Shown here one piece after another: positions 2,480 to 5,359 of a stretch of 64,000 nt of DNA; the stretch's first letter is position 1; the number at the start of each line of letters is the position of its first letter. Where the stretch lies: NCBI GenBank assembly GCA_012401045.1, contig GCA_012401045.1_4704.1. One strand, 5' to 3'. Both the position numbers and the translations under genes were made by a program. Below the pieces are notes generated by a model. The model saw only the letters and a list, made by a program, of their open reading frames with translations, had not been told where the DNA came from and did not search any database. This DNA comes from a phage.

Positions 2480-3118
2480 TTAACCTAATTTACCACCGGC
2501 GATGTTGGTGAAATCTTCGCCATCAGGAACTTGCAGTAGGATACGTGCCATGTCCCAGTTGGTTAATGTAATTGCTTTATCATCGATACTCAGTTCTGGT
2601 AGGTCGAGTTCATGATCATCAAACTCGTAGGAAATACTCCACGTTTCATCTGTTTTAGGATCGGTTATCAACACACCGTCTGTTACACGCATGTAGTCCG
2701 GGTGCAGTTCATTACTGAATGTGCTGAACGGATCGGTGTAACATTCAGCATATCCCTCGATCTGCTGACGCTGTGCCTTCGTACGTAATTCAGGGCACGC
2801 CATGATCAGTTGTCGAGATATACCGTTTGCGGCACGGAAGTCTTCCACGGTGTTACATGGCATAACCACATCGTCATGGAAGATGTTCTCCGATTGTCTC
2901 AACAGCGTCTTACGGAGTTCAGCATAGTTTATCTGATTGAATGCGTCGAACGTTGCTAACGATTCAGCGTAAAAATGCTTTACGTGTTCGCTTGCGCCGC
3001 CGAGGCTATTCATCAACTTGTGACCGTACTCCATGAAGCTTTTATCGAGACCGGAGGACATTTCTCCGAACCTCAGTGCACGATAACTGTCTCGTCCACC
3101 TGTAAATATTTGCGCCAT
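2480..3118 (-). CDS. hypothetical protein (212 aa)
   Basis: Complete ORF with an AAGGAGG RBS. It lies immediately downstream of the beta-prime exon 3 stop. No RNAP motifs seen. Confidence 0.6.
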   Translation of the reverse strand: MAQIFTGGRDSYRALRFGEMSSGLDKSFMEYGHKLMNSLGGASEHVKHFYAESLATFDAFNQINYAELRKTLLRQSENIFHDDVVMPCNTVEDFRAANGISRQLIMACPELRTKAQRQQIEGYAECYTDPFSTFSNELHPDYMRVTDGVLITDPKTDETWSISYEFDDHELDLPELSIDDKAITLTNWDMARILLQVPDGEDFTNIAGGKLG

Positions 3119-3133
3119 TACAGGCGTCCTCCT

Positions 3134-3358
3134 TTAGCAATGGTTGTTAGTTGCTTCTATTTCATCAAGATACGGTTCTACGTCATCGCCCTCCACGAAT
3201 TCGTTGAACCAACAGTCAATGGTAGAAATAACCGGCGACTGGTGTTCACATTTCTTAGATACCTTAAAAGGTACGTTATTATCCATCATACCGAGTTCGG
3301 GTCGAAAACGCCCGAAATGTTTCGCAGTCCAAATGTCTGGGACGATATGGTTGTTCAT
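3134..3358 (-). CDS. non-virion RNA polymerase beta-prime N fragment, exon 3 (74 aa)
   Basis: Begins MNNHIVPD..LGMMDNNVPF. This matches the universal beta-prime segment after the catalytic motif (DGD-x-M-N/A-x-H-x-P ... LMMSTNNILSP in E. coli). It is in frame with exon 2 when joined at 3358. Confidence 0.75.
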   Translation of the reverse strand: MNNHIVPDIWTAKHFGRFRPELGMMDNNVPFKVSKKCEHQSPVISTIDCWFNEFVEGDDVEPYLDEIEATNNHC

Positions 3359-3713
3359 CGTAGTGTTCAGCATGAGTCGCTACCTCATACCCGCAGCTTT
3401 ACCTGCAGCTTCCGGTGTTACCGGAATGTCCAGAATATATCTTATCCATATTCCAAATGGAACGTAGGACTTCCGCGCTGGATCTCGCTTGAGACCACGT
3501 ATTCGTTGAACGTTCTCCTGAACGGAGCTTCGCTGCTGATCGAACATTGTCACGTACGGTAGGCATCCCCGAAGGGATTGTCATTGAAGCCGCGTACATC
3601 CGCTACCTTGTTTCTACCTTATCGGTTCCTCTTACGAGGCGTAGCAGCCTTAGCCCTTCCCAGCAATTCACGGAATCCAAGCTCTTCCTTTCGGAAGGCA
3701 GGGCCTATGATTA
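3359..3713 (-). ncRNA. group I self-splicing intron 2 (ORF-less, 355 nt)
   Basis: Read on the minus strand: P AAUUGCUGGGAAGG (3668..3655), Q GAUCAGCAGC (3541..3532), R GUUCAACGAAUACG (3511..3498), S AAGAUAUAUUC (3443..3433). P7 is GAAUA/UAUUC and P4 is GCUG/CAGC. There is a GAAA-capped P2 and P9-type hairpins (e.g. UUCCGG-UAACA-CCGGAA, 3426..3410). The last nucleotide is G (3359). The boundaries rest mainly on reading frame and motif restoration. Confidence 0.75.
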
Positions 3714-3726
3714 AGCGTCACCGTCG
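3714..3726 (-). CDS. non-virion RNA polymerase beta-prime N fragment, 13-nt micro-exon 2 (completes Phe, encodes Asp-Gly-Asp-Ala)
   Basis: Minus-strand CGACGGUGACGCU. It is the only GAY-GGN-GAY between exon 1 and exon 3. It is complementary to the intron-1 guide sequence CCGUCG (P10). Confidence 0.75.
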
Positions 3727-4103
3727 CTGTTTATCGACTATATCTTCATCCTCGTTGCGAGGAGTCTCCCGTTTTGGTCTGTGTTTAACAGAGCCTACTC
3801 TACTCGACATCGCGTCTTTCGATAGTCTGTGAGCACACATCTTAACAAACATTCGTGGATTCCTAAACAGGTGAATGTTCTTGTTGAGATGCTTCGCTGC
3901 GGATTATTCCCGTCCTACCTCTTTTACCGTACCCAGTTCATTACGCTGGCCCTCATCTATGTCACCACGATGAGTTGGTGTGTAGTCCGATTACAGAAAC
4001 TTCCCGTCAATTAGAGAGCTTTAACTACGTTCCTGTTACCAGAAACCCGACTCCGACGGCATCAATAAATCAACATAAGTTATTGATTTAATTGAAAAAA
4101 CTG
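3727..4103 (-). ncRNA. group I self-splicing intron 1 (ORF-less, 377 nt)
   Basis: Read on the minus strand: P AAUUGACGGGAAG (4012..4000), Q AAUCCGCAGC (3905..3896), R GCUCACAGACUAUCG (3834..3820), S AAGAUAUAGUC (3746..3736). P7 is GACUAU/AUAGUC. The internal guide CCGUCG-GAGUCGG (4059..4047) pairs with the 5' exon end CCGACUU (U.G at the splice site) and with the 3' exon start CGACGG. The intron ends in G (3727). Confidence 0.88.
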
Positions 4104-5359
4104 AAGTCGGCATTATAACCTTTGAGGATCATCACGCTTAACCCGATGGTGTTATCCTGCGGATCGCGTTTAACCTTGGTGATTTCAAGACATTGGTTAC
4201 TGCTTCGGTCAAGTGATGGGTTTCGAACAAAGCCGCACACAATCCCATCGAACGGTGTATCAGCAATAAGCTCATCGTGCAGCTCGCTCATCATCGGATG
4301 ATAATTACGGACATGTTCCGCAACGAACGCACGCGCTGCTCTCGGTGAATAACCACGATGGAATAACTTGGATTGGATATGTTCTTTATTGGTTAAAGTA
4401 AATGGTGCGTATGGGAAATGCAGATGATAATAACGATGGTTCGCTGTTATCGAACTGATTACGGTACGCGTGGTGAATGGATGTAATGTACCTAATATGT
4501 TTTTACGTGTAATACCTTTCTTCTTACCGATGAACTCATCGAAAATCGCCGCGTGGTATTGCAGTAGCTTCAATTGCACTTTCGCCATCCAGTTTTCTTT
4601 CTTTCTGGCGCTCAAAGGTGTTGTTGGATGATAGATACTGTTCAACGTACCGATAGCATCGATCGCACCTTCCATTTTGCTATCCGCATAACGACCGGTT
4701 GGCGTATTCTCGATAACGAACATCATGGCCGCAGGAAAGCTGATATACTGACTGAAGAACTTATCACGATGGATACGGATGAATTCTCGTAGCGTGTCAA
4801 CTTTCTCCGTGTTCTTCGGTCCACGTAACGTCGGTCCTTTATACAAGATCTCCATGATGCGATCGAAGTTCTGTATAAAACTATTTACACCGCGACGTAT
4901 CCCGAATACATCGAATTGCTGCTCCAGATAGTTCTTGAGTTCGATGGGTCGTTTTACATTTGGACGGTAACTGGCATCAATGAGCCACGTCATCGTTTCA
5001 AAGCTTTTGATATTCAACTCGCTTGCCAGCACGAGATGGACCAACGGGTTAATGAACGCATCGATTCCTTCAGGAACACGCGCCCAAACCGTCGAACGAA
5101 TCTCCTGTTCTGCCGGGTAGGTCACAACCGTTTTACAGTTTGGACACACCGTGCCGAGTAGCTCACCACGATTGTAGAAACCACAACCACACTGTGGTGT
5201 GATATCCAGCGTATCGCTGGAGTAAACACGGGTGATAAAACTGTTTAATTTCTTCTTCTCTTCGACGACTTTTGTATCGTAATCATTCAACAAAATCGGC
5301 GTAAAAGGAAGTTCTGCGAGCTGTCTATCGAAACTCACGATATCGAGCATGATGGCCAT
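4104..5359 (-). CDS. non-virion RNA polymerase beta-prime N fragment, exon 1 (phiKZ gp55-like)
   Basis: Zn-ribbon CGCGFYNRGELLGTVCPNCKTVV resembles E. coli beta-prime [23 protein letters not shown]. The uninterrupted ORF ends ...KGYNADF-SFFN*, stopping in the middle of NADFDGD. It sits directly downstream of chimallin, as in phiKZ gp54-gp55. Confidence 0.85.

Follow-up and report, generated by a model that had tools for sequence, protein, structure and literature searches.

How is a catalytic subunit of RNA polymerase made from a gene whose reading frame stops inside the catalytic motif itself? The question arises in a stretch of phage DNA of 64,000 nucleotides (nt), here called the window (NCBI GenBank assembly GCA_012401045.1, contig GCA_012401045.1_4704.1), whose genome is 98.3% identical to that of Escherichia phage vB_EcoM_Goslar, a nucleus-forming jumbo phage. 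On the minus strand, the open reading frame (ORF) 5359..4088 for the N-terminal β′ subunit of the non-virion RNA polymerase ends GYNADFSFFN*, so that it is broken off within the universal catalytic motif NADFDGD and its unspliced product has 423 residues. A sequence-only reading of the window had placed a group I intron at this point. In agreement with that call, positions 4103..3727 (minus strand), intron 1 in what follows, are very probably a functional IA-type group I intron that interrupts the Phe codon of NADFDGD; its splicing is what we infer. The gene is laid out as follows.

4104..5359, minus strand: exon 1, N-terminal β′ subunit of the non-virion RNA polymerase, homolog of phiKZ gp55 (Pfam, PDB match, ORF list)
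3727..4103, minus strand: intron 1, group I, IA-type, 377 nt, with neither an ORF nor a P9 hairpin (Rfam RF00028, 113-pair curated structure, relatives)
3714..3726, minus strand: micro-exon CGACGGUGACGCU, 13 nt, encoding -DGDA (frame reconstruction, gap-free homolog alignment)
3359..3713, minus strand: intron 2, group I, 355 nt, from another family than intron 1 (Rfam 20.9 bits, E 0.025)
3134..3358, minus strand: exon 3, MNNHIVPD... to the stop (ORF list, homolog alignment)

Exon 1 ends GGU UAU AAU GCC GAC UU (G Y N A D F-), and its protein matches the Pfam family RNA_pol_Rpb1_2 (E 5.8e-9). Cuts at 4104/4103 and 3727/3726 join GAC UU to C GAC GGU GAC GCU, which rebuilds the Phe codon as UU|C and gives N-A-D-F-D-G-D-A. 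When intron 2 is removed as well, the sequence reads NADF|DGDA|MNN, with the predicted junctions ...GCCGACUU|CGACGGUGACGCU|AUGAAC and an exon 3 that starts AUG AAC AAC. The three-exon product has 497 residues (~57 kDa) and aligns with phiKZ gp55/56.1 with no gap at either junction (PDB 7ogp_A, E 1.1e-74); the solved phiKZ subunit is itself a fusion of PHIKZ055 and PHIKZ056.1. The alignment with 201phi2-1 gp107 is likewise gap-free across both junctions (NADFDGDQLNMTLLPD against NADFDGDAMNNHIVPD). As a control for an empty site, a related viral contig of 237.5 kb (L008) without intron 1 reads straight through as GAC UUU GAC GGU GAU GCC. The splice sites proposed earlier are thus borne out by the restored codon and by the uninterrupted homolog.

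The elements of intron 1 are listed below, where intron position i is window coordinate 4104 - i.

4104..4110, minus strand: 5′ strand of P1, exon CCGACUU, which pairs with 4053..4047
4062..4095 (intron 9-42), minus strand: P1.1, an AU-rich hairpin in the P1 loop (fold, pair counts; kept in all copies)
4059..4047, minus strand: internal guide CCGUCG-GAGUCGG, of which CCGUCG (4059..4054) is the P10 strand and GAGUCGG (4053..4047) the P1 strand
4029..4046 (intron 58-75), minus strand: P2, 7 bp, capped by a GUAA tetraloop (two one-sided wobble changes and no breaks in the copies)
4018..4014 with 3770..3766 (intron 86-90 with 334-338), minus strand: P3 (curated structure)
4012..4000, minus strand: element P, AAUUGACGGGAAG (sequence)
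4009..4003 with 3903..3898 (intron 95-101 with 201-206), minus strand: P4 (curated structure)
3999..3995 with 3911..3907 (intron 105-109 with 193-197), minus strand: P5 (curated structure)
3994..3912 (intron 110-192), minus strand: three-way extension of P5, 83 nt, including a hairpin with a GUGA tetraloop (common to the PhiPA3 and SIOphi introns)
3905..3896, minus strand: element Q, AAUCCGCAGC (sequence)
3833..3897 (intron 207-271), minus strand: P6/P6a/P6b, a long hairpin (one compensatory change, C-G to U-A)
3834..3820, minus strand: element R, GCUCACAGACUAUCG (sequence)
3829..3822 with 3741..3735 (intron 275-282 with 363-369), minus strand: P7 (invariant in the copies)
3816..3806 (intron 288-298), minus strand: P7.1, a 3-bp hairpin
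3795..3776 (intron 309-328), minus strand: P7.2, 7 bp (one compensatory change, C-G to U-A)
3763..3749 (intron 341-355), minus strand: P8 hairpin UCCUCG-CAA-CGAGGA (sequence)
3746..3736, minus strand: element S, AAGAUAUAGUC (sequence)
3727..3734 (intron 370-377), minus strand: 3′ tail AUAAACAG, with the terminal G at 3727 (breakpoints against Goslar, 13-contig table)
3726..3721, minus strand: start of the downstream exon, CGACGG, the P10 partner

Both splice sites are defined by the internal guide, as the sequence-only reading had it. P1 is formed between exon positions -7 to -1 and intron positions 51-57; it has 7 bp, the last of which is a U.G pair at the cleavage site. P10 is formed between intron positions 45-50 and the first six nucleotides of the downstream exon, with 6 Watson-Crick pairs, and abuts P1 directly on the guide. 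The P1 loop spans 44 nt (4103..4060) and is ~80% A+U. An AU-rich loop of roughly 45 nt with its own hairpin had been described here; the hairpin is present, but it is longer than was drawn (12-14 bp with one bulge, 4095..4062). The exon 1 frame enters the intron for five codons and reaches its UAA stop (4090..4088) at the base of P1.1, upstream of the guide.

The P10 helix also bears on where the 3′ splice site lies. An alternative would be that the true site is elsewhere, either at a cryptic G or because intron 1, micro-exon and intron 2 are removed as one unit. Tandem group I introns can skip a middle exon, according to PMC10136302, and the P1 of intron 2 has only 3 bp. However, skipping would delete DGD from NADFDGD, and the gap-free homolog alignment is obtained for the three-exon product only. 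Position 3727 holds the only G between the 3′ strand of P7 (P7′) and the micro-exon, and P10 is perfect and conserved for exactly this position. We regard a different 3′ site as extremely improbable and take 3727 as the end of intron 1.

The conserved P3-P8 core contains the P, Q, R and S elements and the P3/P7 pseudoknot, in the topology expected for group I introns. All helices of the 113-pair structure, the pseudoknot included, can be drawn with standard pairs only. P4 consists of U95-A206 and G96-C205, a bulged A97 and then CGGG/UCCG. P7 consists of GACUAU/AUAGUC and C275-G369 across the bulged A276 (the A at 3828), and its G-C pair 3827/3736 is presumed to be the guanosine-binding site. 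These P4 and P7 helices, the GUAA-capped P2, the CCUCG-CAA-CGAGG P8 and the P, Q, R, S, guide and exon-end strings had all been picked out from the letters alone, and each was found where it had been placed. The 51-nt segment between the 5′ strand of P7 and P3′ (3821..3771) folds into two hairpins, P7.1 and P7.2. Because these two hairpins sit between P7 and P3′, intron 1 is assigned to subgroup IA, the type common in phages.

A comparison with a group I covariance model had been suggested as a check on the intron call. In a permissive scan, the Rfam model Intron_gpI matched 4094..3727 on the minus strand over its full length (model positions 1-253 of 253) with a score of 49.3 bits (E 7.7e-11 in a 3-kb search and 1.6e-9 in the whole window). 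The 3′ end of the match coincides exactly with the proposed terminal G at 3727. A default Rfam scan of the window, with its cut-off of 50 bits, gave no match. In the alignment the P9 of the model (17 positions) is deleted, and the model sets its own P1 on the AU-rich P1.1 hairpin, so that the true guide and P2 become an insertion. The shortfall in score is explained by the deleted P9 and by this placement of P1. Within intron 1 of the window there is no endonuclease ORF, as had been noted: the longest sense-strand ORF that touches it has 44 residues and no Pfam match.

Pattern and protein searches recovered 13 contigs with intron 1, and nine distinct sequences were aligned. A metagenome scan with an 18-nt Q/P6 pattern gave 50 matches, mostly chance matches in bacterial DNA, of which five loci were true relatives. 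Across the nine copies, 98.3% of the cells of the 113 modelled pairs are standard, compared with 38-42% when the partners are slid by 1-3 columns. Of the five pairs with compensatory double changes, P1 holds two, while P5b, P6b and P7.2 hold a single one each; one pair of P5b varies between GC, GU and AU, and the observed covariation score was reached by no shuffle. P3, P4, P7 and P8 are paired throughout. P10 to the 3′ exon is kept next to the terminal G in every copy, and its sole changes are from C-G to U.G.

The guide matches its own exon in 13/13 contigs. Where the exon reads GCC GAC UU the guide is GAGUCGG, and where it carries the synonymous GCA GAU UU the guide is GGAUCUG, which amounts to two double compensatory changes and one wobble change in P1. 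Such tracking of the exon by the guide is hard to explain unless P1 is used. In a set of seven sequences, 18 of the 21 variable helix columns keep their pairing; the other three give non-pairs, all at the ends of peripheral hairpins, which are probably over-extended in the structure model.

These observations bear on the idea that the short intron of the window is a decaying remnant that no longer splices, left after deletion of an endonuclease gene and P9, and that the polymerase gene is broken. In the established model of the homing cycle, loss of the endonuclease gene is followed by loss of the intron, and a remnant would be expected at the end of that cycle; the Rfam score just under the cut-off would fit it too. 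Against this stand the retained pairing and the guide that follows synonymous exon changes, as well as exons that are in frame and undamaged. The catalytic Asp triad of the phage's middle/late RNA polymerase is encoded by the very gene that is interrupted, and six contigs carry the short allele, among them one of near-complete genome length. A dead remnant is therefore very improbable, and we return to the functional intron.

P9 is a usual feature of group I introns that lies outside the catalytic core. In the window the tail AUAAACAG cannot form a hairpin, nor can the tails of the five other contigs with this form, which also leave just 7-8 nt after P7′, so that neither P9 nor P9.0 is found. 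The near absence of P9 had been recognized before, and that description holds, but the spacing is not 9 nt: AUAGUC is separated from the terminal G by 8 nt, or by 7 if C275-G369 is counted in P7. Pairing of the tail UAAACA with the P6b loop UGUUUA was considered as a substitute for P9 and rejected, since a match of equal or greater length arises in 18% of shuffles and the relatives give it no support. On the same strand, GUCG at the 3′ end of P7′ (3735..3738) could pair with the CGAC that opens the micro-exon (3723..3726); a 4-bp hairpin of this kind would enclose the 3′ splice site and compete with P7 and P10.

What lies at this point in other phages was seen by comparison with Goslar. The two sequences are identical up to GUCGAUAA, and identity resumes at AG|CGACGG; the interval in between measures 1065 nt in Goslar and 2 nt in the window. 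The dinucleotide CA of the window (3729..3728) fills the place of the whole P9 hairpin and endonuclease gene of its sister alleles. The Goslar insert begins with UUACGUGCACCGAC and ends with GUCGGUGCACGUAA, which pair without a mismatch into a 14-bp stem; the 3′ strand of this stem lies directly against the terminal G. The loop of this stem (~1040 nt) carries a Shine-Dalgarno sequence and an ORF of 336 residues with HNH_3 and NUMOD1 domains. In phage genomes, the best full-length homolog of this endonuclease is PhiPA3 gp210, with 23% identity. An endonuclease search of viral contigs returned Goslar itself only; a protein search found a 90%-identical endonuclease on contigs L063-L068. The intron 1 contigs differ both in this cassette and in the presence of an upstream intron (I0).

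I0 absent, cassette absent: the window only; intron 1 of 377 nt
I0 absent, cassette present: Goslar, L063 and L066; intron 1 of 1440-1443 nt
I0 present, cassette absent: L006, L020, L022, L027 and L059; intron 1 of 376-380 nt
I0 present, cassette present: L064, L065, L067 and L068; intron 1 of 1445 nt

Related phages with and without an endonuclease gene, which the sequence-only reading had proposed to look for, thus both exist (six short, seven with the HNH gene). The six short copies are on independent contigs, one of 237,972 bp and so near genome length, and span ~7% sequence divergence. Throughout the 13 contigs the short allele has CA just before the terminal G, where the long allele has its hairpin, and the stem and endonuclease gene of the long allele are always inserted at the same point. 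The window copy is, judged by these sequences, the endonuclease-free allele of an intron with a presence/absence polymorphism.

The cassette and the ribozyme around it have diverged to different degrees. Between Goslar and L063 (ERZ27286049 k141_31814) the cassette is 83.3% and the ribozyme core 96.5% identical, whereas between L063 and L064 (ERR12832516_150), which differ also in I0 status, the cassette is 99.8% and the core 95.2% identical. The 3′ flank of L063 (P8 variant, tail GACAAA, exon GGGGAU) is of the L064/JACXXQ01 type and its 5′ part of the Goslar type, so L063 seems to have arisen by recombination, with the crossover within intron 1. These patterns lead us to conclude that the cassette and its 3′ flank move between backgrounds by recombination, as expected for homing. 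All 28 nucleotides of the stem are identical in Goslar and L063 despite the divergence of the cassette, from which we conclude that selection maintains the stem in alleles with a remote 3′ end.

A recent gain of the endonuclease gene, confined to Goslar, was considered and dropped, as the gene lies on both intron backgrounds and its cassettes differ by 17%. We take both alleles to be old, and the data are compatible with the short allele being either an uninvaded ancestor or a deletion product. The CA junction has no simple microhomology that accounts for gain or loss of the cassette. One cassette (L067; GCA_008102125.1, AAJPOU010000051.1) lies on a 2.3-kb contig of a Salmonella enterica serovar Kentucky assembly, which suggests that Goslar-like phages occur with Salmonella too.

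From the anatomy of intron 1 and established group I chemistry, the following course of splicing is proposed. P1 would be formed by the contiguous 13-nt guide and the last seven nucleotides of the exon, its U.G pair lying at the cleavage site, and an exogenous guanosine held in the G-C pair of P7 would attack the 5′ splice site (4104/4103). The 5′ half of the guide would then pair with the first six nucleotides of the micro-exon into a 6-bp, G+C-rich P10 stacked directly on P1. The terminal G at 3727, on a 7-8-nt tether from P7′, would enter the same pocket, and the exons would be ligated. As no P9 or P9.0 is possible, the choice of the 3′ splice site would have to rest on P10 and the short tether. 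The sequence, the structure, the covariation, the restored exons and the allele series are observed, whereas catalysis and this reliance on P10 alone are what we infer. The latter fits reports that P9.0 or P10 can be removed singly and not together (PMC11417360). The GUAA loop of P2, the GUGA loop of P5b and the P5 extension might supply compensating tertiary contacts, which is conjecture. In the host phage transcription takes place inside a ribosome-free nucleus (PMC12908238), and splicing is therefore probably uncoupled from translation.

Several points weigh against a functional intron 1. The Rfam score lies 0.7 bit under the gathering cut-off, minimum-free-energy folding alone misses the group I fold, and P7.1, with only 3 bp, is weak. 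The relatives are 92-98% identical, so that the covariation rests on few independent events. The nearest relatives outside the Goslar clade all keep a P9 with a GNRA cap, and the short allele may therefore be inefficient in splicing or require assistance. In PMC3873408, P9 is described as an essential paired region whose absence is 'very unusual'.

The last two points also speak for another explanation, in which the intron is genuine and its P9-less allele depends on outside help to fold or to pick the 3′ site, from an RNA chaperone of phage or host, from a maturase or from intron 2. The GAAA-capped P2 hairpin of intron 2, which starts ~37 nt past P7′, could serve as a surrogate L9. That P9 is normally kept, as a 5-bp helix in the nearest relatives, speaks for such help. 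So does the stem of the sister alleles, which is perfectly conserved despite 17% divergence of the cassette and by this argues for a role of the stem where the 3′ end is remote. Intron 2 also follows intron 1 by 13 nt in 13/13 contigs. Yet the tail is tied to no other element by specific pairing or by covariation, the sole candidate being the 6-nt match to L6b rejected above, and no maturase-like ORF lies in or next to intron 1. A P10 of 6 bp with a very short tether is a sufficient known substitute for P9.0 (PMC11417360). We consider dependence on a helper unlikely and keep to an intron that would splice by its own means.

A further extension of that reading is offered tentatively, as possible and rather doubtful. 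The ribozyme may by nature have no P9 and still be fully active, with P10 alone selecting the 3′ splice site; the 14-bp stem of Goslar-type alleles would then lie outside the ribozyme proper, as the mobile cassette's own clamp that pulls a remote G to the core; the cassette may then move alone between intron copies, with nicking near the exon 2 side. If this were so, the population would keep the states of the intron before and after invasion, and would offer a natural test of the model in which an endonuclease gene invades an intron, in a phage that splices within a ribosome-free nucleus.

Intron 2 lies next to this system and shares the micro-exon with it, whose first six nucleotides are the P10 partner of intron 1 and whose last three belong to the P1 of intron 2. 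It is homologous to the phiKZ-type gp55/56 intron, and its 3′ tail matches the T2P/phiKZ-type intron, which scores 80.4 bits. The boundaries 3713..3359 are the only pair that keeps the frame correct, puts a U before the 5′ site and ends in G. Its 3-bp P1 is GCU/GGC and its P10 has 4 bp (AUGA/UCAU); in L008 the nucleotide before the 5′ splice site of intron 2 is C instead of U. Across Goslar-like and phiKZ-like phages, five positions of group I introns were found in G-Y-N-A-D-F-D-G-D-A-M: in the Y codon (U|AU), at N|A, at A|D, in the F codon (UU|C) and at A|M. Intron 1 is thus one of several crowded into the same eight codons. Each polymerase gene has at most three introns, with micro-exons of 13, 13 or 18 nt between them. 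Further intron loci in this motif are L006 1165..1548 (minus strand), L008 5247..5602 (plus strand) and L004 2228..2699. Directly upstream of the polymerase gene lies the ORF for chimallin, the nuclear shell protein, as in Goslar.

The ribozyme core is already flagged in the Goslar GenBank record; the P9-less form and the cassette polymorphism appear to be undescribed. We found no paper on intron 1, intron 2, the micro-exon or the cassette polymorphism; the Goslar genome paper makes no mention of introns, and the paper on the PhiPA3 intron none of intron 1. The interest lies mostly in the natural allele series and not in the fact that there is an intron. P9 is usually seen as standard group I architecture; here an indispensable active-site codon is interrupted by an intron that appears to be maintained without it, and natural pairs of short and stem-bearing alleles allow a direct test of what P9/P9.0 and P10 each contribute. 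Stem and endonuclease gene that swap with two nucleotides, and a 99.8%-identical cassette on different backgrounds, make an unusually clean system for the entry and exit of endonuclease genes. For annotation, the Goslar-like β′ ought to be entered as one spliced gene of three or four exons instead of separate hypothetical proteins. A related intron endonuclease of PhiPA3 mediates competition between PhiPA3 and phiKZ (PMC11620839), and the dense, variable load of introns at the polymerase motif may matter for co-infection among jumbo phages of E. coli and Salmonella.

Among known introns, the closest is that of Goslar itself, annotated automatically as an Intron_gpI feature (MK327938 / NC_048170, 169269..169645), which is the same intron at the same site of the same gene. 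Its ribozyme core is 97-98% identical to that of the window, and P1 and guide are identical; it differs in being 1440 nt long, with the 14-bp stem and the HNH_3/NUMOD1 ORF where the window has CA. The database feature is the raw model match (2807..3183 of the locus), and it stops at a point 13 nt inside the stem instead of at the 3′ splice site. In the Goslar locus (L001, 1542..4830) β′ is split into several coding sequences: gp247 ends at the stop within the intron, gp185 is exon 3 under the name 'hypothetical protein', and intron 2 is unannotated.

Outside the Goslar clade, the closest relatives of the ribozyme are the intron of PhiPA3, in the gene for the β subunit of the non-virion RNA polymerase (gp065 region), and that of Bacillus phage SIOphi, in the terminase gene. 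They share with the window the three-way extension of P5, the Q/P6 sequence, the two hairpins between P7 and P3′ and the R/S core. In contrast to intron 1, they interrupt other genes, lack the long P1.1 hairpin and have an ordinary 5-bp P9 right after P7′ (with a GAAA loop in PhiPA3), scoring 79 and 73 bits with Rfam. The lack of P9 is therefore peculiar to the window allele and not to its family.

Endonuclease-containing introns in the polymerase genes of phiKZ have long been predicted (PMC10914365). The phiKZ gp55/gp56 intron, read here in phage T2P, lies in the same polymerase subunit and the same motif, and its spliced product is the solved protein mentioned above. Its insertion site (N|ADFDGD) is two codons farther upstream. 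It possesses both a P9 and a 3′ extension, and it belongs to the family of intron 2, not of intron 1.

The sunY (nrdD) intron of phage T4 is an IA2-type intron with an endonuclease ORF in its 3′ terminal region, where a remote 3′ splice site is returned to the core by 3′-terminal pairings and P10. It is the classic case for invasion of a pre-existing intron by an endonuclease gene, and its endonuclease, I-TevII, is GIY-YIG-like. This layout (IA2, 3′-terminal ORF) parallels the Goslar allele, whose endonuclease is of the HNH type instead. To our knowledge, T4 has no natural allele in which the whole P9 region and the ORF are replaced by two nucleotides. The model of Loizos et al. is treated in PMC3984707.

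In the IStron of Clostridioides difficile, an IA2 ribozyme carries a large mobile insert at the very end of its 3′ part, and the 3′ splice site follows only after this insert (PMC3984707, PMC4227781). Its cargo is an IS605-family transposon and not a homing endonuclease, and its host gene and biology are different. A group I intron without P9 has also been modelled in the trans-spliced mitochondrial intron Pr.rnl.1 of Prasinoderma, a fragmented organellar IB intron for which the authors suspect a missing third piece or accessory factors (PMC3873408). Unlike Pr.rnl.1, the intron of the window is in one piece, is of the IA type and belongs to a phage, and the stem is present in its sister alleles.

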